From positions 1 through 35,899 of the IMG/VR virus record IMGVR_UViG_3300017747_002940: DNA of 35,899 nt, one strand, 5' to 3'. Source of the DNA: a virus (taxonomy: Duplodnaviria; Caudoviricetes). The position numbers and the translations under genes are program-made. Shown here piece after piece: positions 1 to 35,421 of the stretch; position 1 is the first letter of the stretch, and every line of letters starts with the position of its first letter. Under the pieces are notes generated by a model. The model saw only the letters and a program-made list of their open reading frames with translations. It was not told the origin of the DNA and did no database searches.

Positions 1-123
1 CAGTCTGCGAAGTTCCCGTTGGTCTTCTTGTCCCAAACCAGCACGCAACTCGTCGGCGGCAAGCTGTAGTAGTTGCCGCCGAAGATGATCTGATGCTGCG
101 CCTTTGCACGCATCAAGCCAATC
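1..123. repeat. Terminal direct repeat, copy 1 (circular assembly overlap)
   Basis: 1-123 is identical to 35777-35899, and a methyltransferase ORF reads in frame across the join. Confidence 0.95.
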
Positions 124-356
124 AGCCAATCGGCCGGCACGTCGGCATCCCATGTCGTTTGCGCGTAGATGCGTTTAGCCACACGGCGGTGCCCGTGGCC
201 CACCACAGTGCCGCTCGCTTTGTGCGCGGCAGCATCTGCGCCAATCCCGTAGGGCGGGTCCGTCAGCAGCAAGTCATGTGCAGGCAGCAGCGGCAGCACC
301 TCGCGGCAGTCCCCGTGCCACAGTTCCGCGTTCCCGATCACTACTTTCTCAGCCAT
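1..356 (-). CDS. DNA adenine-N6/cytosine-N4 methyltransferase, N-terminal part (continues at 35776-35422; about 236 aa in total)
   Basis: Manual translation from ATG 356 gives MAEKVVIGNAELWHGDCREVLPLLPAHDLLLTDPPYGIG (DPPY catalytic motif). It joins ORF 35422..35892, which carries LDPFMGSGTTG. Alternative in-frame ATG at 362. Confidence 0.9.
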   Translation of the reverse strand, partial: MAEKVVIGNAELWHGDCREVLPLLPAHDLLLTDPPYGIGADAAAHKASGTVVGHGHRRVAKRIYAQTTWDADVPADWLIGLMRAKAQHQIIFGGNYYSLPPTSCVLVWDKKTNGNFAD

Positions 357-358
357 CT

Positions 359-451
359 TCATCCTTTGTTGGTGCGCCACCAGTGAAACCTAACCCCTCG
401 GTCAACCGGAGAGCCCACGGCAAGTGTGGTGGCGTTATCAGGCTTTGTCAT
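359..451 (-). CDS. Leader peptide starting inside attC-like site (MTKPDNATTLAVGSPVDRGVRFHWWRTNKG)
   Basis: GGAG upstream of ATG 451 within the attC; its stop TGA overlaps the MTase ATG at 362 (ATGA). Confidence 0.5.
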   Translation of the reverse strand: MTKPDNATTLAVGSPVDRGVRFHWWRTNKG

Positions 452-483
452 GGGTGGTCTCCCGGTTACCTCGAACGTTAGGC
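388..483 (+). mobile_element. attC-like site 2 (96 bp)
   Basis: ACCTAAC-CCCTC-GGTCAACC...GGTTACC-TCGAAC-GTTAGGC. Confidence 0.9.
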
Positions 484-755
484 GGACGCAAATACCGGCG
501 CCCGTGGCCTCTCTGCTTTTCAGCCAAGAAAAACTCTGCGTCCTTGTTGACGCAGCCGCCGTCCGGGTCAAGAAACCACCAAGCATCTGTGAAGTCGTCA
601 GAAATCAGCGGCGCCCGCGTCTTCCAGTCGCACTTCACGGCCAGCACATAGCGGCGGCGGTTTGCCGTGGCATGGGCCACGATGAGAAACAGCCACCACG
701 AGTCTTCGGCCTCGTTTGTCGCTGCCCAGTAATCACCTGCTTTTATGTGACTCAT
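438..755 (-). CDS. Hypothetical cassette protein
   Basis: GAGG RBS upstream; C-terminus PNVRGNRETTHDKA is read from the neighbouring attC. Confidence 0.7.
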   Translation of the reverse strand: MSHIKAGDYWAATNEAEDSWWLFLIVAHATANRRRYVLAVKCDWKTRAPLISDDFTDAWWFLDPDGGCVNKDAEFFLAEKQRGHGRRYLRPPNVRGNRETTHDKA

Positions 756-781
756 GCGTTTCCTCGTTTGTCCACAGCGCC

Positions 782-839
782 GCCTAACCCATCGCTCAAC
801 TTGACCGCCTACGGCGGCAAGTTAGCTCGAACGTTAGGC
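782..839 (+). mobile_element. attC-like site 3 (58 bp)
   Basis: GCCTAAC-CCATC-GCTCAACT...AGTTAGC-TCGAAC-GTTAGGC. Confidence 0.92.
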
Positions 840-840
840 G

Positions 841-1074
841 TCAGCATTGAGCGCAATAAGCAAGACGGCCAGCGTGCGTCAGTTCGTAGCCAGATACAGT
901 GCAAGGCCACGGGCTATGCCCTACGCGCATTTCCGTTTTGCGAAGAAATCCTTCGTTTACCAATTTGTCAGCTAACTTCGATTTTGTCTGCATCAGATGC
1001 ACGCCTTTTGTAAGCGCGGCATTTACCTCTGCGTCAAACGCTTTTTCAAGCAATGCAAGTTCTCTTGAGTTCAT
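841..1074 (-). CDS. Hypothetical cassette protein (possible winged helix)
   Basis: MNSRELALLEKAF...YELTHAGR; AGGA RBS; fills the cassette. Confidence 0.7.
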   Translation of the reverse strand: MNSRELALLEKAFDAEVNAALTKGVHLMQTKSKLADKLVNEGFLRKTEMRVGHSPWPCTVSGYELTHAGRLAYCAQC

Positions 1075-1095
1075 TCCTATTTCCCTTCTGAGCCA

Positions 1096-1146
1096 GCCTA
1101 ACAGCCCGGTCAAGCCGACCTTCGGCGGCTTACCTAATCGTTGGGC
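1096..1146 (+). mobile_element. attC-like site 4 (51 bp)
   Basis: GCCTAAC-AGCCC-GGTCAAGC...GCTTACC-TAATC-GTTGGGC. Confidence 0.88.
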
Positions 1147-1388
1147 GTCTTTCCCGGCGCCCGCATCTTTTGTGTTGGCACGGCTTGCACAAACACGGCG
1201 AACAACTCAATTCCAGCCTCCCTCATCATCCTGTCGGTGGGTGCCCTTCGCCCGCTAGTAACTGTGGTCACAAACGTCGGCGTGATCCCCCAGTGCCGGG
1301 CGGCAGCAGCTTGCGTGCCGTGCACAGACTGAATGTGTGCAAGCACCATGACGCCTAGTTGCCGCTTCAGTTCGTCCGCAATCTTCAT
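1134..1388 (-). CDS. Small HTH (Cro/XRE-like) cassette protein
   Basis: GTQAAAARHWGITPTFVTTVTSGRRAP resembles a Cro/XRE HTH. Confidence 0.65.
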   Translation of the reverse strand: MKIADELKRQLGVMVLAHIQSVHGTQAAAARHWGITPTFVTTVTSGRRAPTDRMMREAGIELFAVFVQAVPTQKMRAPGKTPND

Positions 1389-1410
1389 TCTGTGCCTTCG
1401 TTCGCCAGCC

Positions 1411-1468
1411 GCCCAACCCCCGCATGCAGCGGAGCCCCTACGGCGCCCGCTGATGCTGGCCGTTAGGC
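1411..1468 (+). mobile_element. attC-like site 5 (58 bp)
   Basis: GCCCAAC-CCCCG-CATGCAGC...GCTGATG-CTGGCC-GTTAGGC. Confidence 0.88.
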
Positions 1469-1744
1469 CCCATACCCGGCGCGCTGACTATCAATCAGGT
1501 CTGCCACCATCTGTGCGTCATCGCCGCATGCTTTGAACAGCGCATCGGTTAGCACGCGAAGTTCTGCGTCTTGCGCCCTCACCAGTGCAGCCCAGCGTTT
1601 GCGCTTGCCGGCCCATGTCTGGTTTATCGTGTCGTCCAGTTCGCGCAGCACGGCATCGCGCGTGGGGCCTAACCCCTCGCTCAAGCCGAGCCCCAACAGC
1701 GGATCAGGCTGCTGTGGCGTGTCGGTAGCTTTGTCGTCATTCAT
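1463..1744 (-). CDS. Hypothetical cassette protein starting inside attC loop
   Basis: GGAG RBS and ATG 1744 lie within attC 6; stop TAA lies in the R' box at 1463. Confidence 0.7.
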   Translation of the reverse strand: MNDDKATDTPQQPDPLLGLGLSEGLGPTRDAVLRELDDTINQTWAGKRKRWAALVRAQDAELRVLTDALFKACGDDAQMVADLIDSQRAGYGA

Positions 1745-1789
1745 GCTTCTTCTCCCGCTGTTGTGTCCGGCTTAGCTCGAACGTTAGGC
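1667..1789 (+). mobile_element. attC-like site 6 (123 bp)
   Basis: GCCTAAC-CCCTC-GCTCAAGC...GCTTAGC-TCGAAC-GTTAGGC. Confidence 0.9.
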
Positions 1790-2119
1790 GTCAAAGTCCA
1801 GCGCCTTTTGCATGCGTGTCATGGATGCTTCCGGCTCGGGGTGCTTGTGTGCCGTACACAGCTCTTCAATGATGCCAATTGCCTCACGCAACGCCTGATC
1901 AAGCATGTCACGGTGCGCCTGAAGATCGGCCATCGTATGTTGCGCGTACTCCAGCGCCTTGGCCGGGTTGCACGCGCTGCAACCGTCTCCCAACAGGTAC
2001 TGCGTAAACGTGCATTTGCATCCGGTCGTGGCGTTGACGCCTAACCCCAAATTCGACTTGAGAGCCAACGGCGTGTTGGCGGGCGTAGCGTCGTGCGCTT
2101 CGGTTGGTTTCGTGGTCAT
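1784..2119 (-). CDS. Hypothetical cassette protein with Cys motif, starting inside attC loop
   Basis: CKCTFTQYLLGDGCSACNP; ATG 2119 in attC 7; stop in R' box at 1784. Confidence 0.7.
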   Translation of the reverse strand: MTTKPTEAHDATPANTPLALKSNLGLGVNATTGCKCTFTQYLLGDGCSACNPAKALEYAQHTMADLQAHRDMLDQALREAIGIIEELCTAHKHPEPEASMTRMQKALDFDA

Positions 2120-2152
2120 CGCGTTGTCTCAAAGTCAATTTGAACGTTATGC
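2039..2152 (+). mobile_element. attC-like site 7 (114 bp)
   Basis: GCCTAAC-CCCAA-ATTCGACT...AGTCAAT-TTGAAC-GTTATGC. Confidence 0.85.
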
Positions 2153-2156
2153 AGCA

Positions 2157-2480
2157 TCAAAACAGGTCCGCCGTCATCGCCGCAGCTTTGCGGGTGGCGT
2201 AGGCGGTGCGCTTGTGGTGCTCGGCGTCATAGGTCAGGTGGCACCGCTGGCACATCGCCTTGAGGTTGTGCGCGTCGCAGTTCTCAGGCGTGTGGTCCAG
2301 ATGCGCCACAGTCAGCACAACCCGCGATCCGGTCACCGGGTGCAGCGTGCCATTGGCTGCTCGGCAGTCCGGGTATGCCGGCGAACCTTCACACAGTTGG
2401 TGCGCTCGCTCGCGAATCGCGTCAGCAATGCGCTTCCAGTCCTTCGGGTAGCGCGCTTTGTTTTCCGGTCGTATCGGCAT
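2157..2480 (-). CDS. HNH-like endonuclease cassette protein
   Basis: LTVAHLDHTPENCDAHNLKAMCQRCH HNH motif; AAGGTG RBS. Confidence 0.8.
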   Translation of the reverse strand: MPIRPENKARYPKDWKRIADAIRERAHQLCEGSPAYPDCRAANGTLHPVTGSRVVLTVAHLDHTPENCDAHNLKAMCQRCHLTYDAEHHKRTAYATRKAAAMTADLF

Positions 2481-2502
2481 ATGTTCACCTTTCACCAATG
2501 CT

Positions 2503-2611
2503 GCATAACCATTCGCTCAACCGGACCCATTGCGGCGTGCCGCCATTTGGGCTAAACACATAGCCCAAATGCCGTCCCGCCGCAACGGTCCGGTTAGCTC
2601 AAACGTTAGGC
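2503..2611 (+). mobile_element. attC-like site 8 (109 bp, long internal stem)
   Basis: GCATAAC-CATTC-GCTCAACC...GGTTAGC-TCAAAC-GTTAGGC; inner ATTTGGGCTA/TAGCCCAAAT stem. Confidence 0.9.
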
Positions 2612-2613
2612 GC

Positions 2614-2856
2614 TCAGTAGTCCACGCCGATCACAAGCGGCCCCATGTGCAGGTACACCATGCACCAGCCCTGAGCGTAGGTCGTCACGAGCCGCCAGCG
2701 CTTCGGGCCGCGGCCGGGCCAGTCGCCCCAGTGCCAAGTCCAGTGACCGCGAGTTGCAGCAATCCAGCATTCGCGCAGCCATCCACCGCCGCGCCTAACC
2801 CCTCGCTCAACCTGACCCAAATGGGCAGGCGCCGCCGTCTTGTGTTCATGCTTCAT
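2614..2856 (-). CDS. Hypothetical Trp-rich cassette protein starting inside attC loop
   Basis: ATG 2856 in attC 9; N-terminal GQVERGVRR is the attC L''/R'' read antisense. Confidence 0.6.
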   Translation of the reverse strand: MKHEHKTAAPAHLGQVERGVRRGGGWLRECWIAATRGHWTWHWGDWPGRGPKRWRLVTTYAQGWCMVYLHMGPLVIGVDY

Positions 2857-2894
2857 CTGCTGCCCCTTTGGTCAGGTTAGCTCAAACGTTAGGC
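2793..2894 (+). mobile_element. attC-like site 9 (102 bp)
   Basis: GCCTAAC-CCCTC-GCTCAACC...GGTTAGC-TCAAAC-GTTAGGC. Confidence 0.9.
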
Positions 2895-3139
2895 CCTTCA
2901 ATCGGCGGGTACACAAACTCGCGCGTGCCGTTCTGGCGTAGCGGAGTGATGACCCCCTGCCGCTCAAAGTGCTCCAGAATCCGCGCCGCTTGGTTGTAGC
3001 CAATCCGCAGATTCCGCTGCAAGAAGGTAAGCGTTATCCGGCCTGGGTTCGCAAGCAACAGCGCCAGCGCGTCGTCTATGTGCTGTGCCGTCACCAGCGA
3101 CAGGCCGGGCCGGTTCTCTATCGGTGTCAGTTCAATCAT
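2882..3139 (-). CDS. Stand-alone FtsK gamma-domain protein (cassette)
   Basis: ITLTFLQRNLRIGYNQAARILEHFERQGVITP...NGTREF matches the FtsK gamma winged-helix signature (LQRxxRIGYNRAARLIE). Confidence 0.85.
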   Translation of the reverse strand: MIELTPIENRPGLSLVTAQHIDDALALLLANPGRITLTFLQRNLRIGYNQAARILEHFERQGVITPLRQNGTREFVYPPIEGPNV

Positions 3140-3161
3140 CTGCTCGCTCCGGTTACAACGG

Positions 3162-3227
3162 GCCTAACCCGTCGTCCGACCTGACAGCCCCGGCAAGCCG
3201 GGTCTGCAGGCCGACTCTGCGTTAGGG
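3162..3227 (+). mobile_element. attC-like site 10 (66 bp)
   Basis: GCCTAAC-CCGTC-GTCCGACC...GGCCGAC-TCTGC-GTTAGGG (one L-box mismatch). Confidence 0.8.
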
Positions 3228-3589
3228 CTGTAGTGGCGCACCACCGCCATCAATTCATCCTCTGTCGGCGGGCGTGGCGGTTGGTCGCTGAACAGCAACC
3301 ACGCGCCTTCAGTTCGGCCCCGGCTCTTGTACCAAGTCACCCATAACGCCAGCGCGCCGCCTGCGCCTTCAACGTTGTCAACTTGCACCGTCGCGTACTT
3401 CTGATCTTCGCAATATCGGTAATCCACGCCGCTCGGCATCGGGCTTTGGCCTTCGTACACCAGATCGCGCAGTGCGTTCACGCTGGCGCAGTTCCAGTTT
3501 TCGGCGTGGAACGCGCCCCGCTTAAAGGCGCACGTTGGGTCGTCGCCGGGCCAGGTCTTGCCACGCTTCTTGCACTCTTCACAGTTCAT
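3164..3589 (-). CDS. Hypothetical cassette protein
   Basis: GGAG RBS; MNCEECKKRGKTW...WYKSRGRTE; reads through the whole of attC 10. Confidence 0.75.
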   Translation of the reverse strand: MNCEECKKRGKTWPGDDPTCAFKRGAFHAENWNCASVNALRDLVYEGQSPMPSGVDYRYCEDQKYATVQVDNVEGAGGALALWVTWYKSRGRTEGAWLLFSDQPPRPPTEDELMAVVRHYSPNAESACRPGLPGLSGRTTG

Positions 3590-3608
3590 CGCGTTTCTCC
3601 AACAACAG

Positions 3609-3668
3609 CCCTAACTACTCGCTCAAGCCGAGCCCGCACGGCGGGCCGGCTTAGCTCGAACGTTAGGC
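3609..3668 (+). mobile_element. attC-like site 11 (60 bp, canonical)
   Basis: CCCTAAC-TACTC-GCTCAAGC-CGAGCCCGCACGGCGGGCCG-GCTTAGC-TCGAAC-GTTAGGC; extra C in L'' and extra A in the stem. Confidence 0.93.
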
Positions 3669-3955
3669 GCTGCAATCCTGTATCGCGCGTACCCGCATTT
3701 TTCAACAATTCCAGCATCCAGCAGCTTGCGCATCGCTTGGTCAACGGAGGTCACCGACACATCAAGCACAACAGCCACCTCGGCCGTCTTCATGGGTGCC
3801 CGGAACTCTGCCAAAGTCAGCAGAATCTTCGCCTGTGTTTTTGGCGGCTTTCCAAGCCTGCCGCCGTGCACGCCGCGCCTAACCTTTCGGTCAAGCAGAG
3901 CGCCAACGGCGGCCACGCCGTCACGCTCCGGGTCAGTCTGTAGCGCCGTTGTCAC
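3623..3955 (-). CDS. Winged-helix DNA-binding cassette protein starting inside attC loop
   Basis: ILLTLAEFRAPMKTAEVAVVLDVSVTSVDQAMRKLLDAGIVEK wHTH pattern; GGAGG RBS then GTG 3955 inside attC 12. Confidence 0.7.
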   Translation of the reverse strand: MTTALQTDPERDGVAAVGALLDRKVRRGVHGGRLGKPPKTQAKILLTLAEFRAPMKTAEVAVVLDVSVTSVDQAMRKLLDAGIVEKCGYARYRIAAPNVRAKPARRAGSA

Positions 3956-3976
3956 CTGCTTACCTCCACGTTAGGC
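3877..3976 (+). mobile_element. attC-like site 12 (100 bp)
   Basis: GCCTAAC-CTTTC-GGTCAAGC...GCTTACC-TCCAC-GTTAGGC. Confidence 0.88.
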
Positions 3977-3989
3977 ATCACAAAACCCG

Positions 3990-4286
3990 CTAAGCACGTT
4001 CCGCTGCAATGGCCGCGTCCAGCAGTTCGCGCAGCGGGCCAGGCCGGTATGCGGCATCCTTGTAGTGCTCGTCCCAGTCATCCCAGCCAGTGCCGTTCTC
4101 GTCCACGGCCACGCACCACGCGGCCAGCATGGCAATGGCAATGTCGCGCTCCTTCACCAGTTCCTCGCGCTCATCGGCGCGGCCTTCGGCGTAGGCTTCC
4201 TCCAGCGTCGGGGGCAGCACGTTCGCCAGTTCAGCGGCTTCTTCGGTGTTCAGGCCGTCAGGCGGCTGGAAATTGTCGTGGCTCAT
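3990..4286 (-). CDS. Hypothetical cassette protein
   Basis: AAGGA RBS; NGTGWDDWDEHYKDAAYRPGPLRELLD. Confidence 0.75.
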   Translation of the reverse strand: MSHDNFQPPDGLNTEEAAELANVLPPTLEEAYAEGRADEREELVKERDIAIAMLAAWCVAVDENGTGWDDWDEHYKDAAYRPGPLRELLDAAIAAERA

Positions 4287-4316
4287 ATCGTCCTTTCGTT
4301 GTTCGTCAACAGTGAT

Positions 4317-4374
4317 GCCTAACCCCGCAATTCAAGCCGACCGGCGTACCGGCGGCTTAATTGCAACGTAAGGC
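4317..4374 (+). mobile_element. attC-like site 13 (58 bp; R' is GTAAGGC instead of GTTAGGC)
   Basis: GCCTAAC-CCCGCA-ATTCAAGC...GCTTAAT-TGCAAC-GTAAGGC. Confidence 0.85.
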
Positions 4375-4620
4375 GCTTACCGGCACGCTAGCAAAGGCAT
4401 GCTCGCAGCAGCTACCCAGCTTCTTCACTGGGAAGCCGCCAATGCCGCAGCGGTTGGCTTGAACGCCGTACTTTTCAACGTCCCACACGCCGGGTTGCTT
4501 CTGAATCCAGGCTGGCAGCGTCATCGTCGCCACGCGGTGCGCGCAGTTTCCGCACACGCCAGCGATCAACCTTGGCGTGTACTGCTGCGCCTCAATGGCG
4601 GCTTTGTGTTTCTTGCTCAT
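4357..4620 (-). CDS. Hypothetical Cys-rich cassette protein
   Basis: CGNCAH...RCGIGGFPVKKLGSCCEH; GAGG RBS. Confidence 0.75.
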   Translation of the reverse strand: MSKKHKAAIEAQQYTPRLIAGVCGNCAHRVATMTLPAWIQKQPGVWDVEKYGVQANRCGIGGFPVKKLGSCCEHAFASVPVSALRCN

Positions 4621-4649
4621 GCTTGCTTCCCCTCGTTTATCAACCACGC

Positions 4650-4709
4650 GCCTAACCCCTCGCTCAAGCGGGACCGCCTGACGGCGGCCCCTTAGCTCGA
4701 ACGTTAGGC
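4650..4709 (+). mobile_element. attC-like site 14 (60 bp)
   Basis: GCCTAAC-CCCTC-GCTCAAGC...CCTTAGC-TCGAAC-GTTAGGC. Confidence 0.9.
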
Positions 4710-4710
4710 A

Positions 4711-5055
4711 TCACTGAATACGCACCGTGCGGCCGCCGTGGCGCAGAACTTCACCACGCTCGCCAATGGTCACCGGGTCGTCGCGGTGTACGCGCAGCGC
4801 CTGCTTGATCGCTGTCTCTGCGTTGCGCTGGTACTTGTCATACTCGGCTTGCAAGCGCTTCAACTTGTCGGCGGCCTCGCGCTCGATTTCGCCTATGCGG
4901 TCGCTCCGCGGCGGCGAGTAAAACGCCATGCCGTAGTGCTCATGCCCGCCTTCTGCGCCGCCAGCCAAGCAGTCAAGCTGCTCTGGCGTCAGCTTCAGGC
5001 CGCACTCGTCTGCGGCTTCGGCGATGCAATCTTTCCAATAGTCACTGTTGCTCAT
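4711..5055 (-). CDS. Hypothetical cassette protein
   Basis: MSNSDYWKDCIAEAADECG...HEHYGMAFYSPP; AGGA RBS. Confidence 0.75.
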   Translation of the reverse strand: MSNSDYWKDCIAEAADECGLKLTPEQLDCLAGGAEGGHEHYGMAFYSPPRSDRIGEIEREAADKLKRLQAEYDKYQRNAETAIKQALRVHRDDPVTIGERGEVLRHGGRTVRIQ

Positions 5056-5078
5056 ATTCGTCCTATCGTTGTAGTGAT

Positions 5079-5179
5079 GCCTAACCCCGCAATTCAAGCG
5101 GAGGCCCAACGGCATCAGCTTTGGTGGCTTCTTCGTACATGGTCACGCCGTTGGTCTCCGCTTAATTGCAACGTTAAGC
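5079..5179 (+). mobile_element. attC-like site 15 (101 bp; last of array)
   Basis: GCCTAAC-CCCGCA-ATTCAAGC...GCTTAAT-TGCAAC-GTTAAGC. Confidence 0.88.
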
Positions 5180-5554
5180 CCCAAATAAGCTGCCAGGCGT
5201 GCCAACAGGTGGCGGGGCTTCAGGCCTCGCGCTGCCTTCCCATGCTGTCGCCAGCAGTGCCAGTAATTCCTGGTCACTGTCCGCGCGCAGCAGCCGGTCG
5301 TGTGCGTTCACGCAGATGGATTGCAGGCGGGCAATCTCTGCGGGCGGGCTTGCTGCCAGGGCTGCGCGCTCTTGCCACAGCGCCCATGCCAGATCGACCG
5401 GATAGTCCTTGTAGTTCCCCGGCCATGCGCTGGTGTGGTCGTCGGGCCAGCGCTCGGTGTTGCGCTCGTAGGGCGGGCCACTGATAGTGCGCTCAAACGC
5501 AGTGCGCTCGGCATCCGTGGGCGCAGGCAGTGCGCTTGTTGTGTTGGTGGTCAT
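5174..5554 (-). CDS. Hypothetical early protein
   Basis: ATGA coupling with the upstream gene at 5551-5554; stop TAA in the last R' box. Confidence 0.7.
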   Translation of the reverse strand: MTTNTTSALPAPTDAERTAFERTISGPPYERNTERWPDDHTSAWPGNYKDYPVDLAWALWQERAALAASPPAEIARLQSICVNAHDRLLRADSDQELLALLATAWEGSARPEAPPPVGTPGSLFGA

Positions 5555-5979
5555 GCTCTTGTCCCCAATGGGAAATTGATCGGATTGTTTGCGTAGTGCC
5601 AAATGCTGGCAATTTGCACCGGCCGACGCCATGAATAATTGCGCGGTTCAACGGTTTGCGCTTTTGCTGGCTTTGGCAATTTTGGGCTTGTTGCCGTTTT
5701 TATGCGCTTGCGTTCTCGGGCTCGCTTACGCTTCCGCTCTTTCCGTTGCTCAGAGAAAACAGCATAGATACCGACAGGCCCGTAGCGGTTATTGGGGCCT
5801 TTGGTCATTTCGGAGAGCCCGCGTCCAGCAAGAACGCGCATGTATGCCTGGGCATGATGCACTGTCAGCCCAGTAGCTGCGCACACATCAATTAAGCGTA
5901 TGCCGGCCATACCTGAACCCAGCACCAGCGACAAAACTTGTTGCAGCTTTGCTTCGGGCATTGCGTATTGGCCTTTCAT
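5551..5979 (-). CDS. Hypothetical basic protein (possible wHTH)
   Basis: ATGA-coupled on both sides. Confidence 0.6.
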   Translation of the reverse strand: MKGQYAMPEAKLQQVLSLVLGSGMAGIRLIDVCAATGLTVHHAQAYMRVLAGRGLSEMTKGPNNRYGPVGIYAVFSEQRKERKRKRARERKRIKTATSPKLPKPAKAQTVEPRNYSWRRPVQIASIWHYANNPINFPLGTRA

Positions 5980-6473
5980 TTAATCGCCAGCCTCCAACCT
6001 TGCGCCAGCGTCACGCCCGGGATGTCTGCACCGCCTTGAATTGCGGTCTTCAGAAGCGCTTTGTCCGGTTCTGGCTCTGGCGCAGGCTTTTGACGCATGT
6101 ATTGCGCAGGAATTACGGCGCCGTCTGCAATCTGTACGGCTGGCGGCTTCTTTGCTATCTTTGCCGCCCATTCGTCGGTTGCAATCTCTGTTGTTCCCGT
6201 CGTCTGCATGTGTGTGAGTGCGTATTCCCGCAAAGCCTCTGCACGGCTGTCCAACGTTTTTGCGCGGTCGGCCATGCGCTTTGCTGCATCCTTGGCGCCA
6301 CCGGCCAAAATGTCAAGTTCCAAGCCATACGCGATGACTGCGCGCAACTTGTCGTGCAAGTCCCCCTGTAGGCTTTCTATGGTGTCGCGCACCACTTCGA
6401 CGGGCATGTCTACGTCTGCCAGTTCGGCAAGCTGGGTGCGGTATTCGGCTGCAATGTGAAAAAGGGCGGTCAT
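5976..6473 (-). CDS. Siphovirus Gp157-like protein
   Basis: Coiled coil then KIAKKPPAVQI...IPAQYM...PEPDKALLKTAIQGGADIPGVTL; sits next to the SSAP as is typical. Confidence 0.8.
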   Translation of the reverse strand: MTALFHIAAEYRTQLAELADVDMPVEVVRDTIESLQGDLHDKLRAVIAYGLELDILAGGAKDAAKRMADRAKTLDSRAEALREYALTHMQTTGTTEIATDEWAAKIAKKPPAVQIADGAVIPAQYMRQKPAPEPEPDKALLKTAIQGGADIPGVTLAQGWRLAIK

Positions 6474-7105
6474 GTTGTCACTTTCTGGACTTTCGCCATC
6501 TTGGTTGCTTGTGCTGCAAGAAATTGGCTTTCAGCATCGCCGTCGTTTTCAGCGCGGGCTTCTTCAATGGCTTCGTGTGTCAATCGCTTGCACTCGCCCA
6601 CGGTCGGCGAAAACTGGATTGCCTCCAGCCACGCGGCCAGCCATTGCGCACGATCCGGGCTGTCTGTGCGTGGCTCGTCGGCATGCAAATCTCCTTTGTG
6701 CCACAAGTCCAGCGCCGCACCGAAGCGCATGGCGGCATTGCGCAGAGCATCCCCAATGCGCTCCTTCATGGCGGCTGGGCCGGTCTTGCCTTCAGCGTCC
6801 CCGTAGCCCATGCGCGTAACCCCGCAGATGGTAAGGCGAATCCACAAGCCCCCATTGCTGTCCAGCTTGGGCAAGCCATCCCCGTCAAAGGCCACCGGCG
6901 CCCATGTCCAAGTGGGGTCGGTGTCCAGCAGTCGATCCGTTAAAGCTGCGTGGCCCACGTAATCAAGGTGCATGGCCGGCAGCCCGTGATAGCCACCGCA
7001 CTCTGGACAGTTGCCCTTAGGTGAGTCTTTTTTGTACGGCTTGGGTAGCTTGCTGATTTGGTGCGCAGGAAAGGGGGTGCGCAGAAGTTGCAATTTGTCG
7101 CTCAT
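6470..7105 (-). CDS. Rad52/Rad22 (Sak-like) single-strand annealing protein
   Basis: LDYVGHAALTDRL...KERIGDALRNAAMRFGAALDLW resembles the Rad52-family motif. Confidence 0.75.
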   Translation of the reverse strand: MSDKLQLLRTPFPAHQISKLPKPYKKDSPKGNCPECGGYHGLPAMHLDYVGHAALTDRLLDTDPTWTWAPVAFDGDGLPKLDSNGGLWIRLTICGVTRMGYGDAEGKTGPAAMKERIGDALRNAAMRFGAALDLWHKGDLHADEPRTDSPDRAQWLAAWLEAIQFSPTVGECKRLTHEAIEEARAENDGDAESQFLAAQATKMAKVQKVTT

Positions 7106-7112
7106 GTAAACC

Positions 7113-7226
7113 TCAAAACGGCGGGCGTTGGACGGTCGTTTTCCATGCTTGGAACAGCGCTTGGTGCATTGGCAAGTGACCGCGCAGCAGGCGATACATC
7201 AGCAAAAATGTACGGGCGCGGCTCAT
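7113..7226 (-). CDS. Small hypothetical protein
   Basis: ATGA-coupled; MSRARTFLLMYRLLRGHL. Confidence 0.45.
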   Translation of the reverse strand: MSRARTFLLMYRLLRGHLPMHQALFQAWKTTVQRPPF

Positions 7227-7378
7227 GTCGCGCTCACGCGGGTCAGAATCACCAGCCACGCCACCACTGCCACCAGCAGGACGGCAATCACGAAGTCTGC
7301 CATGTGCCCGTGACGATTGATAGCATCCAGGTGACCGTCGAATTCTTCGTCGGTCATGTCCCGAATGCGGCGGTTCAT
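7223..7378 (-). CDS. Small membrane protein (51 aa)
   Basis: Manual translation MNRRIRDMTDEEFDGHLDAINRHGHMADFVIAVLLVAVVAWLVILTRVSAT; AGGAG RBS. Confidence 0.6.
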   Translation of the reverse strand: MNRRIRDMTDEEFDGHLDAINRHGHMADFVIAVLLVAVVAWLVILTRVSAT

Positions 7379-7545
7379 TGCTTGCTCCTGACGATTTCAT
7401 CCAGCATGGCATGCAAACGCGCCCGACGTGCGGCTGCTTCACGCTCGCGCAAGGCTTGCAATGCCTGTTCGTTGGCGCGTGTTTGCATCGGCGTCAGGGC
7501 CGGGAAAGGCCAGGGGCTAGGCCCCCAGTGATGTGTGGCTTTCAT
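7375..7545 (-). CDS. Small hypothetical protein (56 aa)
   Basis: GGAGG RBS, ATGA coupling; MKATHHWGPSPWPFP. Confidence 0.55.
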   Translation of the reverse strand: MKATHHWGPSPWPFPALTPMQTRANEQALQALREREAAARRARLHAMLDEIVRSKQ

Positions 7546-7832
7546 GCTACCTCCGACTGGTAGCGCTCAACTTGAGCAGCAGCCAGGAAGTCGGCGCGCT
7601 CGATAGCCGCGTCCGCAACATCGTCGGCGTATTGCGCTTCAGACTGCCGGGTGACGGCCCAGTCGATGCAGTCGCACAGCGCAGGGCGCAGGATGTCGCG
7701 CGGGTCAACCCAGCCGTCGCGCCATTGCAATTCTGTGGCGTAGTGCGTGGGGATAGCATCTTCGTCGCTGTCATAGCGAACTGTGAACGCGACGCCATCA
7801 ACGGTGACTGTGGTTTCCAGGGGCTTGGGCAT
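7542..7832 (-). CDS. Hypothetical early protein
   Basis: First ORF after the leftward promoter. Confidence 0.65.
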   Translation of the reverse strand: MPKPLETTVTVDGVAFTVRYDSDEDAIPTHYATELQWRDGWVDPRDILRPALCDCIDWAVTRQSEAQYADDVADAAIERADFLAAAQVERYQSEVA

Positions 7833-7868
7833 GTTGCTGTCCGGTCGGTGTGTTGCTGCGATGTAGAG

Positions 7869-7897
7869 ACTGTGCCCGGATTCGGTGAGGCTGTCAA
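7869..7897 (-). promoter_or_regulatory. Leftward early promoter candidate
   Basis: TTGACA-17 bp-CACAGT on the minus strand. Confidence 0.55.
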
Positions 7898-7903
7898 CCG
7901 CTT

Positions 7904-7927
7904 TTGGTTAGGACAAACCCTAACCAA
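7904..7927. promoter_or_regulatory. Palindromic operator candidate
   Basis: TTGGTTAGG-ACAAAC-CCTAACCAA between the divergent -35 boxes. Confidence 0.55.
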
Positions 7928-7933
7928 TTCCGG

Positions 7934-7962
7934 TTGACGCCAAGCCCCACATCCGGTAATGT
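7934..7962 (+). promoter_or_regulatory. Rightward promoter candidate
   Basis: TTGACG-17 bp-TAATGT, 7 nt before ATG 7970. Confidence 0.55.
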
Positions 7963-7969
7963 CCAGCAC

Positions 7970-8176
7970 ATGAACATCAAACCACTTCCCACAATGGAAG
8001 CTGTGCGTCAAGCACTGGCGCCCCTGACGCTCAGGCAGCTAGACAAGTTGCAAGAGCTATCCGGCGTGCCGGCGACCACGGTTTACAAGATCAAGCAAGG
8101 GGAAACGGCAAACCCTGGCATTGACACGGTGCGCAAGTTTTTGCCGCACATCGAAGCCGCTAAAAAAGGAGCATGA
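7970..8176 (+). CDS. Cro-like HTH regulator
   Basis: LRQLDKLQELSGVPATTVYKIKQGETANPGIDTVRK XRE/Cro HTH. Confidence 0.8.
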   Translation: MNIKPLPTMEAVRQALAPLTLRQLDKLQELSGVPATTVYKIKQGETANPGIDTVRKFLPHIEAAKKGA

Positions 8177-8177
8177 C

Positions 8178-8315
8178 ATGCCAAGTTTTTTTGATGAGCC
8201 GCCGGAGCAACTGCAATCCACCATGCGCTGGGTTGCCGGATTTCTTCTTGGTTGCGCGTCTTGCGTTCTGCTGGTGTTGGCTGGCCTGCTGGTTCAGCTG
8301 GGGGTGTGCCGATGA
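8178..8315 (+). CDS. Small membrane protein
   Basis: AGGAG RBS; one hydrophobic helix. Confidence 0.55.
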   Translation: MPSFFDEPPEQLQSTMRWVAGFLLGCASCVLLVLAGLLVQLGVCR

Positions 8316-8485
8316 CCGGCCCGAAGCTCTACCCCCTCGGATCGCACATCAAAGGCGTCCGCAACAACAACGGCCACCGCACAAGCCAGCACCAGGCGAC
8401 AAAGGGGCGCAGCAACGCGGCAGCGGTGCCGCTTGCGCGGGTTGGGGCGGTGCTGCCGTGGGTGGCACCGACGGAAAGAGCATGA
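8312..8485 (+). CDS. Small hypothetical protein
   Basis: ATGA-coupled on both sides. Confidence 0.5.
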   Translation: MTGPKLYPLGSHIKGVRNNNGHRTSQHQATKGRSNAAAVPLARVGAVLPWVAPTERA

Positions 8486-8730
8486 ACGAGACGACTGACT
8501 TTGCCGAAATGTGGGTATCTGTGACCGCGCTGCGCAGTGCGATTGCCGGCGGCTATGTGAAGCCGGGAGGAGATGAGCGCACGACGCTTGTTCTGGCGGC
8601 AGAGATTGATAGGCTGCGCGAGGCCCTGCATGAGATTGCAGAAGCCGACATGACGACAAAGGGGTTTCAGATGATGGCCGCCGAAGCGCTGGATGCCCCT
8701 GCCCCGCCACACCCGGGGCAACAACCGTGA
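8482..8730 (+). CDS. Hypothetical protein
   Basis: ATGA-coupled; AAEIDRLREALHEIA coiled coil. Confidence 0.6.
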   Translation: MNETTDFAEMWVSVTALRSAIAGGYVKPGGDERTTLVLAAEIDRLREALHEIAEADMTTKGFQMMAAEALDAPAPPHPGQQP

Positions 8731-8736
8731 AACCCC

Positions 8737-8766
8737 TTGCGCATCTGTGCGGTAGCACGCTATGAT
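8737..8766 (+). promoter_or_regulatory. Promoter candidate upstream of replication gene
   Basis: TTGCGC-18 bp-TATGAT. Confidence 0.45.
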
Positions 8767-8771
8767 GCAAA

Positions 8772-8892
8772 CATCCATTGCTTGGCGGCGAAGGATGCAG
8801 TCATGAGGCCACTAGCTCATGCGTTCTGTGGGGGGGAAACCCCTCAACGCCGCCAAGCACAGAACGCAGCAGCTAGTGGCCTTTTTGTTTTT
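8772..8892 (+). ncRNA. Structured leader RNA / attenuator upstream of replication initiator
   Basis: Long stem 8806-8830 pairing with 8858-8882 followed by a T-run; 11-nt complement 8780-8790 / 8848-8858. Confidence 0.6.
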
Positions 8893-8900
8893 GGCGCCAT

Positions 8901-9758
8901 GTGAACTACTTTCCTTTCCATGTTGGCGATTACGCAGCCCATACGGCACACCTGGAGCCGATGGAAGACCTTGCTTATCGGCGCATGCTCGACCTGTACT
9001 ACTTGCGCGAGTGCTCGTTGCCTCATGAGCCGGCAGAAGTTGCCCGCCTGATTCGCATGCGCGCGAACGTGGCAGAGGTTGAGGCCGTGCTGCGCGAGTT
9101 TTTTACGCATACCGATGGCTGCGGTTGGAGCCATGCGCGCTGTGAAGCCGAAATTGCAAAGATGCAGGATAAACAAGCGAAGGCTAAAGCGTCCGCTCAC
9201 GCATCAGTGAATGCGCGTCAAGCGAACGCTCAACGAACGCTCAACGAACGCTCAACGCATGTTGAGCTACCAACACCAACACCAACACCAACACCAGAAG
9301 ATTCTGTAGCTAAAGCTACAGACGCCGCTGCCGCGTCGGCTCCGGTTGCTGACGCAAAGCCAAACAAGCCGCCGAAGTCGGCAGAGGACATGGCAAAGTC
9401 GGACCTCTGGCAAGCGGCTGTCTCCGTTTTGGAGGCTGGCGGCTGTCCGAAGTCGCAATGCAGGACGTTCATGGGGAAACTTGTGCAGGATTACACGCTG
9501 CTGACTGTGCAGCAGGCTGTTGCAGCCGCTGTCAGCGTACAGCCCGCTGATGCCAGGGAATACCTGAAAGCTACATGCCAGCGGCTGAAGGGGGAGCGAA
9601 AAGACCCCGTGACGGTTGCCAGCGACGCCGCGGAGAAGACAGCGGCATTTTTGGCGGCGCAATCGGCTCCCAAGCCTGGTATGACCGAGGAGCAGAGAGC
9701 AGCCCTGGCAGCGGCGCGCAGGGTAGGTGGCACAGCATCACTGAGGGCGGTAGGATGA
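8901..9758 (+). CDS. DUF1376/YdaU-family replication initiator
   Basis: MNYFPFHVGDYAAHTAHLEPMEDLAYRRMLDLYY signature; internal repeats and PTPTPT linker. Confidence 0.85.
   Translation: MNYFPFHVGDYAAHTAHLEPMEDLAYRRMLDLYYLRECSLPHEPAEVARLIRMRANVAEVEAVLREFFTHTDGCGWSHARCEAEIAKMQDKQAKAKASAHASVNARQANAQRTLNERSTHVELPTPTPTPTPEDSVAKATDAAAASAPVADAKPNKPPKSAEDMAKSDLWQAAVSVLEAGGCPKSQCRTFMGKLVQDYTLLTVQQAVAAAVSVQPADAREYLKATCQRLKGERKDPVTVASDAAEKTAAFLAAQSAPKPGMTEEQRAALAAARRVGGTASLRAVG
9223..9296 (+). repeat. Iteron-like repeats (putative origin)
   Basis: (CGAACGCTCAA)x3 at 9223-9255, inverted GTTGAGC at 9261-9267, (ACCAAC)x4 from 9269. Confidence 0.65.
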
Positions 9759-14824: not shown

Positions 14825-16981
14825 ATGGATGCCGTCACAGATGCAGCAAAACTCTACGCAGAAAGCCTTGATGCCCTGCGGGAGCAGCGCGCGCAGATTG
14901 AAGAAGACCTAGCGTTTTCCGATCCGTCAAACCCGAAGCAGTGGGATGACCAAGAAAGAGCAGAGCGAGAACGCGACCCGGGAGGGGCGCGGCCGTGCTT
15001 GGTCATGGATCAGATTGGGCAGTATGTGTCCAACGTGGCGGGCCAGATCGAGCAGCGGCCCCCGGCAGTCCACGCCATTCCTGTCGGCGCCGGTGCCGAC
15101 ATCCGCGTGGCCGAAAAGCTGGATGGCGTGTTCCGCCAGATCGAATATGCCAGCCGCGCCCAGCAGCATTACGCCCGCGCGCTGACATCCGCAGCCCGTG
15201 CGGGTGTCGGTTACCTAGTTCTGCGGCCCGAGGTCATCGACCGCGCGCTGAACTACAGCGAGCCGCGTATCAGCAGCGAGGGCGACCCGCTGCGGGTGGT
15301 GTTTGACCCGTGGTCCGTAGAGCTGGACGGCTCAGATGCAAACTTTGGTTTCCTGCTGTCTCCTTTGAGTCATTCAGAGTTTGAGCGGCAGTTTCCCGGC
15401 AAGGAGAAAGTATCGTTTGACGGCAAAGAAGCCCGTACCGTCACCGATACGCGCGAATCCATCGTAATCGCGGAACAGTGGTACTGCGAAGAAACCACCG
15501 TTGATATGGTGATTTTTGGCCGTCCTGAAACGCAGATGAGAGAATCGCTGACCAAGACTGATTTTGTTGCTTCGCTTGAAGCCGGAGAACAACTGCAGTT
15601 CCTTGGCGAATACAAGGACAAGCGCAAGCAAGTATGGTGGCGCAAGATCAGCGGCGCCGACATCCTGCAGCAGTCGCAAACCCCAGACGGCAAGAAAGCC
15701 CCCTATCCCGCTGACGGCATCGGCATTGTTCCGGTGTATGGGTACGTGGGCTGGTCTGACGGCCGGATGAAATACTGCGGCATTCCCCGGAGAGCAAGGG
15801 AACCGCAGCTGGCCTACAACTACCATCAGTCCGAGATTCGGGCCTACATGAGCCAAGCCCCCAAGGCTCCGTGGCTTGCCAGCGCACGGGCCGTGAAGGG
15901 CTACGAGAAGCTGTGGGATCGAGCAGGCGTTGAGAGCAGAGCTTTCCTGCCTTACAACGACATCGACGAAGAAGGCCCCATTGCTGCCCCGCAGCGCATG
16001 CAGAACACCGTGAGTCTGCAGAACCACATCGCAAACGCACAACAAGCGTTGCAGGACATCCAAGCCAGCATCGGGATGTACCAGGCGAACCTTGGTGCCC
16101 CAAGCAACGAAAGCAGCGGCGTAGCGATTGACGCGCGCAAATCTCAGGGCGAATCCAGCACGGCTCACTTTCAATCGCACTTAGCTGCAGGCATGGCTCA
16201 GATCGGCCGGCTGACCATGCAGATGTGCGCCAGACTACTGGACACCTCGCGCCAACAACGGATGCTTGGGATTGACAACACGCCAAGCATGGTGCAGATC
16301 AATCCCAACCAGCCGGAAGCCGTTCAAGAAACAGAAAACGGCCTGAGCATCAACCCATCACGCGGCACCTATGACGTGCGCGTTGTGGTCGGGGCAAGTT
16401 TCACCACGCAACGCCAGCAAGCACAAGCGGCGTTTGCCGAAATGATCCGCGCCAATCCCCAGATGGCCCCCGCACTGGCCCCGTTGTGGGCGCAAAGTTT
16501 GGATGTGCCACACGCTGACAAGCTGGCCCAGGTGCTGACCGCAGTTGCTCCGCCTGAAGTGCGCGCCATCCTGCAGCCGGACGAGAAAGAGACGACCGGC
16601 GCACTCAAGGCGCAAATGGAAGAAATGAAAGCAGCGTTAAAGGAAGCCATCCAACACGCTGAAGACGCGCAGCGGGAGTGCGACGAGAAAGACGCGCAGC
16701 TTCAGCAAAAAGAAGTCGAGTCCGACGCGCAGAAACGTGAGCTGGACATTAAGGCTTACAGCGCAGAGACAGACCGGCTCAAAGTCACGGGCGCCAACGA
16801 AGAACAACTCCGCGTCATCGTTGGCGACCTTATCAACAGCATGTTGACGCAGCCCGAGCCGTTGCCTGCTGAGATGCCGGAAGCCTATGAGCCGCCCGAG
16901 ATGGAAGAGGGCATGGAACAGCCAGAAATGAGCGAAATGCCAGAAACAATGCCCGAACAGGGCGCAGAGGTAATGCAATGA
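14825..16981 (+). CDS. P22-like portal protein
   Basis: 718 aa after TerL; RPCLVMDQI, NESSGVAIDARKSQG, YDVRVVVGASFTTQRQ; C-terminal coiled-coil barrel. Confidence 0.9.
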   Translation: MDAVTDAAKLYAESLDALREQRAQIEEDLAFSDPSNPKQWDDQERAERERDPGGARPCLVMDQIGQYVSNVAGQIEQRPPAVHAIPVGAGADIRVAEKLDGVFRQIEYASRAQQHYARALTSAARAGVGYLVLRPEVIDRALNYSEPRISSEGDPLRVVFDPWSVELDGSDANFGFLLSPLSHSEFERQFPGKEKVSFDGKEARTVTDTRESIVIAEQWYCEETTVDMVIFGRPETQMRESLTKTDFVASLEAGEQLQFLGEYKDKRKQVWWRKISGADILQQSQTPDGKKAPYPADGIGIVPVYGYVGWSDGRMKYCGIPRRAREPQLAYNYHQSEIRAYMSQAPKAPWLASARAVKGYEKLWDRAGVESRAFLPYNDIDEEGPIAAPQRMQNTVSLQNHIANAQQALQDIQASIGMYQANLGAPSNESSGVAIDARKSQGESSTAHFQSHLAAGMAQIGRLTMQMCARLLDTSRQQRMLGIDNTPSMVQINPNQPEAVQETENGLSINPSRGTYDVRVVVGASFTTQRQQAQAAFAEMIRANPQMAPALAPLWAQSLDVPHADKLAQVLTAVAPPEVRAILQPDEKETTGALKAQMEEMKAALKEAIQHAEDAQRECDEKDAQLQQKEVESDAQKRELDIKAYSAETDRLKVTGANEEQLRVIVGDLINSMLTQPEPLPAEMPEAYEPPEMEEGMEQPEMSEMPETMPEQGAEVMQ

Positions 16982-18459
16982 CTACCCTTGAAGCGGGCTC
17001 GGCGACATCGCTGCTGATTTCCAACAACGGATTCTTGGAAGTGGCAACGGGTGGTGGGTTTGGATCGGTGACGATCACGCCCACGGGTGGTGTGGCAGTT
17101 TCTGAAGCGTGGGGGCCTGCGCCGTTCCGCAAGCGTTGGACGGGCTACCCCGATGGCGCGGCGGTGTCTCTGACAAACACGACAAGCGCATCGTTTGACT
17201 ATGAAACGGACACAACGAATCTACCGCTAGCAGTCCAAGCCCTGGTGCAAGGGGGTGGGATGCGGTCCTTGGTGCAGTACCTGCCGAGCGCCACAGACAT
17301 CACGGTGGACGCCGCAGCCGCGACTGTCACGCCGGGGCCGGTGACGGCAGCCAACGTGGCCACCGAGGCGGCCACCTTGCGCGCGGCCCTGACCCGGAGC
17401 TACAACTTCCGCACGTCGAACGCGGAAACGGCCAAATGGCTCAATGTGCCTGGCGGGATCATCGATACCCAGTGGTACGGCACGGCTGCACAAAGCGAGG
17501 CGTACACCAGCGGCGGAACGGATCGCCTGTTCGAGAACGGGGTGTTCGAGTTGGTGACTGACGCCACCGACATCGCCATCATGTTCTATGGCCAGTCCGC
17601 CACGGTGGCACAGTTCCTTATCGATGGGGTCACTGCCCAGTCATCGGACTACACCACCACGGCGCCCCTGGCTGGCGACAACCGCGAAATGTGGTTCCGG
17701 TTCGTCTTCAGTGGCCGCAAGCCCCGCGTGATCGAGTTCCAGCAGCCGGCCGGCGTGCGGCTGTGGGAAGTGCGCTGCGGCCCAACGGCAACCATCTGGA
17801 AGCCAGGCCGGCGTCCGCGCATCAAGATCGTGGCCGACTCCTTCGGCGTGCGCCGCGCGGCCGTGGGCGAAACCGAGCCCACCAGCAGCGATGCCATTGC
17901 GCGAGTTGGCGCCGTCATTTCTCGGGTGCTGGGGTTCGCCGTGCCTGTGCAGTCGTGTGCAGGTGGTACGGGCTTCGCCAAGACGTTCACGAACACCGGC
18001 AATTACGCCTGGCGCATGACGCGAGAGGCGGCAGACCCGACCATCGACGTGGTGTGGCTCTGGGGCAGCGGCAACGATTTGGACCAGACCGAGGCGGCAG
18101 TTCGCCAGGGCGTCACCGACGCCATCGGCCTCGCCAAGTCCAAGCACCCAACAACCAGAATCATCGTCACGGGCATTCTGGGCGGCATGTGGACAGAGGA
18201 CGCGACCCACCAGGCGGTTACGTCATGGGTGCGCACGCAGGCGCTCTCGCTGGGCGCGACCTACATCCCCGTGGCCAGCTATGAAACAGGCGACCAGGGA
18301 GTGATTTTCGGCACCGGCCGCGTGGGTGCAACGACCGGCGACGGCAACGCGGATGTCTACCTGGGCGGCGGCGGTACGGATCGCCATTGGAACGTGGCCG
18401 GCATAAAGTATTACGCCCGGCGCATGGCGCAGACCGTGGCAGCGGCAATCGCGGCTTGA
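16978..18459 (+). CDS. SGNH/GDSL hydrolase-domain protein
   Basis: IVADSF (block I), GGTGF, GSGND (block III), DRHWN (DxH). Confidence 0.75.
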   Translation: MTTLEAGSATSLLISNNGFLEVATGGGFGSVTITPTGGVAVSEAWGPAPFRKRWTGYPDGAAVSLTNTTSASFDYETDTTNLPLAVQALVQGGGMRSLVQYLPSATDITVDAAAATVTPGPVTAANVATEAATLRAALTRSYNFRTSNAETAKWLNVPGGIIDTQWYGTAAQSEAYTSGGTDRLFENGVFELVTDATDIAIMFYGQSATVAQFLIDGVTAQSSDYTTTAPLAGDNREMWFRFVFSGRKPRVIEFQQPAGVRLWEVRCGPTATIWKPGRRPRIKIVADSFGVRRAAVGETEPTSSDAIARVGAVISRVLGFAVPVQSCAGGTGFAKTFTNTGNYAWRMTREAADPTIDVVWLWGSGNDLDQTEAAVRQGVTDAIGLAKSKHPTTRIIVTGILGGMWTEDATHQAVTSWVRTQALSLGATYIPVASYETGDQGVIFGTGRVGATTGDGNADVYLGGGGTDRHWNVAGIKYYARRMAQTVAAAIAA

Positions 18460-34107: not shown

Positions 34108-34127
34108 ACGCATGACTGCCTAACAAC

Positions 34128-34187
34128 GTATAGCTATGTATAGCCATGTATATCACAAGCAGCTTAGACAATACCTGCACATGGCTA
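34128..34187. repeat. 10-bp tandem repeats plus inverted repeat at the late/early convergence point
   Basis: GTATAGCTAT GTATAGCCAT GTATA; TAGCCATGT (34141) / ACATGGCTA (34179). Confidence 0.6.
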
Positions 34188-34189
34188 GC

Positions 34190-34582: not shown

Positions 34583-34584
34583 AG

Positions 34585-35337: not shown

Positions 35338-35362
35338 ACATCTCCACGCTTCGGAACCACAC

Positions 35363-35420
35363 GCATAACCCCTCGCTCGAACCGACCGCCTACGGCGGCG
35401 GTTCAGCTCGAACGTTAGGT
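35363..35420 (+). mobile_element. attC-like site 1 (58 bp)
   Basis: GCATAAC-CCCTC-GCTCGAAC...GTTCAGC-TCGAAC-GTTAGGT. Confidence 0.92.
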
Positions 35421-35421
35421 T

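Follow-up and report, generated by a model that had tools for sequence, protein, structure and literature searches.

What could assemble and rearrange a run of small genes, separated by hairpin-forming repeats, in a phage genome in which no recombinase is found? The question is raised by IMG/VR record IMGVR_UViG_3300017747_002940, a virus of the Caudoviricetes, which was analysed here over its whole length of 35,899 nucleotides (nt), referred to as the window. The record bears the class label for direct terminal repeats, and bases 1–123 recur at 35777–35899 (an unstranded repeat), so that the assembly closes into a circle of 35,776 base pairs (bp) and the phage genome is complete. No tyrosine (PF00589) or serine (PF00239) recombinase matched in the complete record, no recombinase was found among the 64 window open reading frames (ORFs) scanned with PHROGs, and no integron integrase gene, intI, stands beside the array. 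We propose that the array is probably an integrase-less, inverted phage integron, in which 15 cassettes with backward genes follow an attI-like docking site and are likely recombined at G|TT by the integrase of the host, IntI.

The 15 cassettes run from 34601, across the circle junction, to 5173. Their attC sites, 51–123 nt long, consist of an R'' box, a 5–6-nt spacer, an L'' box with an unpaired base, a stem, L', a spacer and R'. This anatomy reads on the plus strand, which is therefore the top strand. R'' boxes end in AAC, the L boxes are paired, and R' boxes start with GTT, except for GTA at one of the 15 sites. By the polarity rule of the extra L'' base, 14 sites lie on the plus strand and one weaker duplicate on the minus strand; at the 14 plus sites the unpaired fourth L'' base is C in 13 and G in one. 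A model of attC built from the window finds 15 sites. Published attC lengths are about 57–141 nt, with a variable terminal stem (Nivina 2016, PMC5027507; Loot 2017, PMC5371416), and one window site, of 51 nt, is shorter than 57 nt. The cluster has no nearby intI and is, by definition, a cluster of attC sites lacking an integron integrase (CALIN), that is, at least two attC sites within 4 kb on one strand with no intI nearby (Qi 2023, PMC9892861; Cury 2016, PMC4889954), one that works like an integron turned round.

The sequence-only reading of this DNA had reported that the bases starting at each R' are the reverse complement of those ending at the next R'' in 14 pairs, and every coordinate pair and length proved exact, at 11, 12, 9, 7, 8, 11, 12, 12, 9, 9, 11, 9, 12 and 13 bp. 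The pair 35414/394 is legitimate because bases 1–123 recur at 35777–35899, which closes the circle. The mean match of 10.36 bp compares with 6.03 ± 0.47 bp for shuffled pairings of cassette ends; none of 10^6 shuffles gave equal complementarity, the highest reaching 9.29 bp. With the one cassette that had been missed (pair 4368/4656, crossover triplet GTA rather than GTT, 8 of 9 positions matching), the 15 cassettes match at 60/60 places over positions 4–7, equalled by 4 of 10^6 shuffles, and at 54/75 over positions 8–12, equalled by none. Positions 13–20 match at chance level, so that the signal is confined to positions 4–12. The two halves of the same integrated site pair over a mean of just 5.2 bp. 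When the cassettes were circularised and their bottom strands folded, a check proposed with the original observation, the circular sites were on average 6.3 kcal/mol better than the native sites, and in 11 of the 15 cassettes the fold with the cassette's own tail was the best of 16 possible tails (ranks 2, 3, 5 and 6 in the remainder).

Such end complementarity is a general, known trait of integron cassettes, and it marks real cassettes. In most of them pairing goes past the 7-nt boxes, to 9–11 nt (Bouvier 2009, PMC2727003), and extended pairing is also stated in general terms (Ghaly 2021, PMC8352920). Bacterial arrays with the same attC motif served as a control: among the matches listed, 231 distinct adjacent-site pairs match over a mean of 10.8 bp against 7.4 bp when shuffled, with exactly 12 bp in 149 of them, which is longer and sharper than the published range of Bouvier 2009. 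In the bacterial arrays L129–L342 (L numbers denote compared loci or contigs, G numbers genomes and X numbers public assembled runs), the match ends sharply at 12 bp, which is the commonest length in seven genomes taken singly and also in the remainder. Other phage contigs gave a mean of 8.8 bp over 79 pairs, against 5.8 bp when shuffled; our site detector misses some sites, so some 'adjacent' pairs skip one, which lowers the match figures. How the match decays is shown by the first cassette of L357 and L358: its R' tail has lost 77 bp at a short repeat, and the match is 7 bp instead of 12. Wherever in an attC a crossover falls, at either end or in the interior, both outer tails stay with the gene, and the match therefore shows neither a circle nor the strand used; by reasoning, the two ends of such a unit were fitted to each other, most simply while it was a circle. 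The sequence-only reading had taken the complementarity as a footprint of circular intermediates and hence of site-specific assembly. Exchange at G|TT is indeed supported, by the independent evidence described below, but the complementarity is a general trait and on its own does not prove a circle. Right about the matches, that reading left unremarked the backward polarity, the docking site, the anchor gene and the missing integrase.

Natural rearrangements among near-identical phages were sought by aligning the contigs of four public runs to 1–5700, which gave two clean joints, each with at least 255 letters on either side; most other joints in this set, with sides of 30 letters or fewer or with unclear inserts, went uncounted. 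A second alignment of this kind left 33996–34661, the docking site included, uncovered. In run X2, position 4364 is joined to 4700 and the 335 bp skipped are exactly cassette 14, with 5 ambiguous bases; in run X5, 3968 is joined to 1139, which places cassette 5 directly behind cassette 12, and 4 bases of the joint are ambiguous. Both joint intervals contain the G|T of R', and neither separates an attC from the gene to its left, the outcome expected of bottom-strand exchange. Overlaps of 4–5 bases would be hard to explain by homologous recombination. Furthermore, locus L090 carries a 97.8% match to cassette 1 that begins exactly at 34600 behind a different attC. Near-identical blocks in 36 phage loci have 31 distinct ends: R' accounts for 11 of these and R'' for 5, a further 6 lie near sites at other positions, and 9 are distant from any site. 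In relatives of cassette 1 both cassette ends change jointly (GTTATGC versus GTTGGGC), and relatives of cassette 2 provide a second such case.

Several further configurations were seen in these loci. The pairs L099/L104, L109/L123 and L088/L093 have near-identical gene bodies with differing attC interiors and breaks at R'', and methyltransferase bodies are exchanged at the start codon. At L090:5250–6790, an attC with perfectly matched ends, as in the circle form, lies between two C5 methyltransferase genes; the right gene has the 3' end of a cassette and no matching R'', and the left gene has a cassette leader and no R'. This pattern is an indirect sign of circles: a single crossover at the conserved N-terminus, between a cassette circle and a resident gene, would produce it, as would a two-crossover swap from a tandem pair. 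In run X5 (window 5173–5217), 327 unrelated letters and then another attC come after the last R', from 5181 on, so arrays are longer at that end. Contig L093 (1–4825) is array DNA only, with an end overlap that maps on L088; it may be a circle of several cassettes, or a duplicated cassette may have produced a cycle in the assembly. The apparent reordering of L093 against L088 was dropped, as it fits a cycle of that kind and L088 begins inside a site; a one-cassette difference between L085 and L091 lies between near-identical attC copies and its route is ambiguous.

The genes of the array face the opposite way from the usual one in integron cassettes. There is a single minus-strand ORF in each of the 15 cassettes, read against the attC top strand and preceded by its attC; the usual polarity, with the gene on the top strand upstream of its own attC, is not found. 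All eight cassette genes with a PHROG or Pfam match are on the minus strand, and seven long plus-strand ORFs gave no Pfam match. In other phage cassettes, PHROG matches occur in 14 of 64 bottom-strand ORFs versus 0 of 62 top-strand ORFs, in a test covering the 65 of 79 cassettes under 1000 bp. Calls by longest ORF are noisy (21/79 phage cassettes are called top), and the PHROG test was therefore used for polarity; in the bacterial control the longest ORF lies on the top strand in 197/231 cassettes among the matches listed. The choice of the bottom strand has been tied to expression from the Pc promoter (Nivina 2016, PMC5027507). In the window the genes face the docking site, the reverse of the layout in which Pc, at the attI end, reads into the array. 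Genes next to short sites start 28–37 nt beyond R''. A predicted start with a clear ribosome-binding motif lies in five of the seven sites of at least 96 nt, for a gene in three of them and for a leader in two; the other two hold one weaker predicted start and none, respectively. Seven ORFs run past G|TT into the neighbouring cassette, so that their C-termini would change on shuffling.

At the other boundary, an anchor gene (34190–34582, minus strand) encodes a basic protein of 130 residues and occupies the place and direction that intI has in integrons. Its start codon (34580–34582, minus strand) overlaps the attI-like docking site (34580–34606, plus strand), in which an L-like box (34588–34594) is followed by a 5-bp spacer and the G|TT crossover at 34600/34601; left of 34600 there is no attC. 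Simple attI sites are laid out as an L box, a 5-bp spacer and an R box, and we take the conserved docking site to have this layout, as judged from its sequence. In L128 and L347, which share the anchor gene, the array likewise starts at this G|TT, and the first cassettes differ. To compare docking sites more widely, 30 of 157 anchor homologues were aligned and 28 loci obtained, L349 being the same contig as L347. The GTT lies exactly 20 nt before the anchor start codon in 26 of the 28 loci, behind which the tails of the first cassettes vary; the spacing is unconfirmed in L367 and in L371, where the locus is incomplete. The site conserves TA at −9/−8 and C at −3, and a box resembling TAAC or TATC precedes the cut by five bases. 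Most of the docking loci with enough DNA carry attC sites behind the docking site, and other phage arrays begin at sites like those that precede the first cassette in two bacterial integrons. Arrays do not follow the annealing-protein gene of this phage, since our detector found none at 80 loci of annealing-protein relatives.

The anchor protein had no convincing Pfam, PHROG or fold match and is not a recombinase. Its structure model has a predicted local distance difference test score (pLDDT) of 81 and a predicted template modelling score (pTM) of 0.45; the best viral match had an E-value of 0.11, the best Z was 4.0, over one helix only, and a feature-based Atlas search with the protein returned no match. 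An arginine-rich helix near the N-terminus may resemble that of the antiterminators that bind RNA hairpins, and an RCDQHA motif is invariant.

The likely candidate for the enzyme that recombines the array is the IntI of the host, on comparative grounds. Bacterial arrays hold the same attC family, and an IntI over the family cut-off was found in 4 of 5 such genomes, with a partial one in the fifth; the attC sites in arrays beside IntI score 51–66 bits. For other phages, IntI1 is reported to have recombined five of six attC sites (Qi 2023, PMC9892861). The family of G003 (Rubrivivax albus) was sampled with 401 genomes, among which the anchor gene had a strong match in one, G187, and a weak partial match in another. 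One G187 contig carries the anchor gene, a docking site and four attC sites; a second contig carries an IntI scoring 474 bits together with attC sites of the same type. The combination fits a prophage served by a host IntI, if the bin is sound.

We propose the following cycle for the inverted phage integron. Exchange between two attC sites, folded from the bottom strand, would release a cassette as a circle and bring the two cassette ends back into a single stem; this would be why complementarity and joint changes are seen between the ends of a cassette and not between the halves of a site. The docking site or a further attC would then take the circle up again. Since the genes face the docking site, the array may be read as the tail of the leftward early operon of the phage, new cassettes being added at the promoter-far end and each attC acting as the 5' leader of its own gene.

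A number of observations weigh against this proposal. The docking site of the window itself has a degenerate L box. No circle junctions were present over 1–5700 in the four runs, as judged from assembled contigs, in which rare forms are lost; the joints in X2 and X5 likewise come from assembled contigs and could be chimeras. The G187 assembly may be a binned genome, whose two contigs may not share a cell. No cassette gene is common to the 79 phage and 231 bacterial cassettes (the latter among the matches listed), and traffic with host integrons is therefore not supported. Ordinary phage integrases lie near the anchor gene or the array end in some relatives, namely L347, L353, L087 and contig C167 of G187. 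If the same cassettes were instead moved by an enzyme other than IntI, such as a phage or Xer-type tyrosine recombinase acting in trans from another phage or the host and perhaps directed by the anchor protein, these integrases, the separate cassette pool and the strict coupling of docking site and anchor gene would all find a place. The integrases nevertheless score far below the IntI cut-off, no tyrosine recombinase matched in either of two complete records, the window and G008, and the anatomy of the sites is of the IntI type, as in the high-scoring bacterial arrays beside IntI; we regard such an enzyme as unlikely.

Of the 22 homology breaks near sites, 11 are at R', with 5 at the R'' side and 6 elsewhere also telling against exchange solely at G|TT. 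The five R''-side breaks, which amount to three or four events, call for a second exchange route, whether top-strand exchange, short-homology recombination or misassembly. They might mean that the attC sites are decayed and act as short homologies through which the phage's annealing, Gam, NinB and NinG functions shuffle genes, the complementarity being a relic. Those genes are all present, the five breaks fall at R'' or in shared stretches of 20–50 bp, any crossover inside an attC would keep the end complementarity, and the methyltransferase swaps at the start codon are of this kind. Decay would not, however, account for joints that share just 4–5 bases at G|TT, for first cassettes that diverge right after a docking site devoid of attC homology, for paired changes at both cassette ends or for a hairpin and extra base kept in 15/15 sites, and we consider it decidedly improbable. 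The idea that the repeats are RNA elements of the early transcript, processing sites or attenuators with gene ends pairing in RNA, draws on the predicted leaders that begin within sites and on the reading of the genes, at 14/15 sites, from the strand with the more stable hairpin (by DNA parameters). It leaves the docking site and the G|TT-exact loss and reordering unexplained; moreover, the same end match occurs in bacterial arrays of opposite polarity, the repeats gave no Rfam match, and terminator-like sites are not enriched (10 found versus 11.5 expected within 1–9000). As the whole explanation it has very little probability, and an additional RNA role of the repeats is possible.

The inverted phage integron invites a broader conjecture, which we hold doubtful although worth stating: that phages of Burkholderiales run an integron of their own, with cassettes of phage genes, attC in front, a dedicated docking site and an anchor protein that recruits or steers host IntI to shuffle counter-defence genes. 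The enzyme so used would be an SOS-induced one whose chromosomal arrays store anti-phage genes. If this were true, mirror-image cassettes with the same ends would imply that cassette creation is blind to gene direction, which would constrain the origin of cassettes.

The cassette contents are typical phage accessory genes, among them two DNA methyltransferases and HNH, FtsK-gamma and winged-helix proteins, and the pool thus appears to be the phages' own. Cassette 1 (34601–35414; attC 35363–35420) carries a C5 DNA methyltransferase gene (35337–34585, PF00145), given, like all genes of the array, in its minus-strand direction. The adenine-type DNA methyltransferase gene of cassette 2 has its end in the first part of the cassette (35415–35899), which runs across the circle junction, and its start, at 362, in the second (1–477; attC 388–483), where a predicted 30-codon leader (451–359) overlaps the start codon. 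The ORF of cassette 3 (478–833; attC 782–839), at 755–438, reads into the next attC. Cassette 4 (834–1140; attC 1096–1146) has a phrog_2239 ORF at 1074–841, and cassette 5 (1141–1462; attC 1411–1468) an ORF at 1388–1134. The predicted starts of the ORFs of cassettes 6 (1463–1783; attC 1667–1789; ORF 1744–1463) and 7 (1784–2146; attC 2039–2152; ORF 2119–1784, weak phrog_12238) lie within their attC sites, as does that of cassette 9 (2606–2888; attC 2793–2894; ORF 2856–2614, frame uncertain). Between them, cassette 8 (2147–2605; attC 2503–2611) encodes an HNH-type protein (2480–2157, phrog_1571). Cassette 10 (2889–3221; attC 3162–3227) encodes an FtsK-gamma-domain protein (3139–2882, PF09397), and the attC of this cassette is read through by the ORF of cassette 11 (3222–3662; attC 3609–3668; ORF 3589–3164). 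The winged-helix protein gene of cassette 12 (3663–3970; attC 3877–3976; gene 3955–3623, PF01022) again has its predicted start within the attC. Cassette 13 (3971–4368; attC 4317–4374, with the GTA triplet) has an ORF at 4286–3990, and cassette 14 (4369–4703; attC 4650–4709), the one that was previously unlisted, an ORF at 4620–4357. Cassette 15 (4704–5173; attC 5079–5179) has a phrog_21617 ORF at 5055–4711 and a predicted short leader at 5146–5081. The last gene before the array in the reading direction (5174–5554, minus strand) has its stop codon within the final R' box, and no attC was found at its start.

Besides a P22-like portal, the phage has genes for head closure and ejection; its early region is lambdoid, with annealing-protein, Gam-like, NinB and NinG genes. 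The contigs of its portal relatives L095–L098 do not reach the array region. All public runs covering at least one-fifth of bases 1–5600 are labelled freshwater or freshwater sediment, and the record may derive from the best of them. A divergent control region at 7850–8200 has one short rightward ORF; no repressor or integrase was found there, and the phage may thus be non-integrating. Short tandem repeats at 9228–9260 and 9270–9295, inside a replication-initiator-like gene (8901–9758), are possibly origin iterons. A 493-residue ORF following the portal gene (16978–18459) has a weak GDSL-hydrolase-like match below the Pfam cut-off.

The array shares with integron cassettes the R''-L''-variable terminal stem-L'-R' hairpin and the extra L'' base (Bouvier 2009, PMC2727003; Nivina 2016, PMC5027507), as well as the G|TT crossover, pairing beyond the 7-nt boxes and one small gene in each cassette. 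Unlike in those cassettes, every one of its 15 genes is on the bottom strand and follows its attC, and two sites are atypical, one in being 51 nt long and one in its GTA triplet. End complementarity by itself is textbook. Like the window, the phages with CALINs described previously have integrase-less attC clusters together with DNA methyltransferases; the sites there are few (4 for MW202573), the typical ones are treated as bacterial-like, and in the text available of that study no inversion, conserved docking site, anchor gene or natural shuffling is reported (Qi 2023, PMC9892861). MW202573 is a distant P22-like relative, with a portal 30% identical, in which we found five model-matching sites on the strand opposite the annotated genes, with end matches of merely 6–8 bp between model-detected sites. 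Our search of the published literature, with most subscription papers outside its reach, gave no account of wholesale cassette inversion or of a docking site. Phage attC clusters and end complementarity are known; the present analysis adds the inverted polarity, the docking site and shuffling in nature that is exact to G|TT. Phage mosaicism could thereby arise by a site-specific route, a host enzyme being used to gain, lose and reorder methyltransferase and other early genes. The sedentary chromosomal integrons of Burkholderiales (G001, G002, G004 and G005) have the same attC family, cross-gene complementarity and an attI-like first site, together with intI, top-strand genes, uniform attC sites of ~128 nt and a sharp 12-bp match. 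The phage arrays differ from them in their mixed attC lengths, in a broader match of 8–13 bp and in sharing no cassette genes in our sample. The creation of integron cassettes is unexplained (Cury 2016, PMC4889954), and a second cassette pool, of opposite polarity, with the same ends and with matches of 8–13 bp rather than a sharp 12 bp, offers a natural comparison for their origin.

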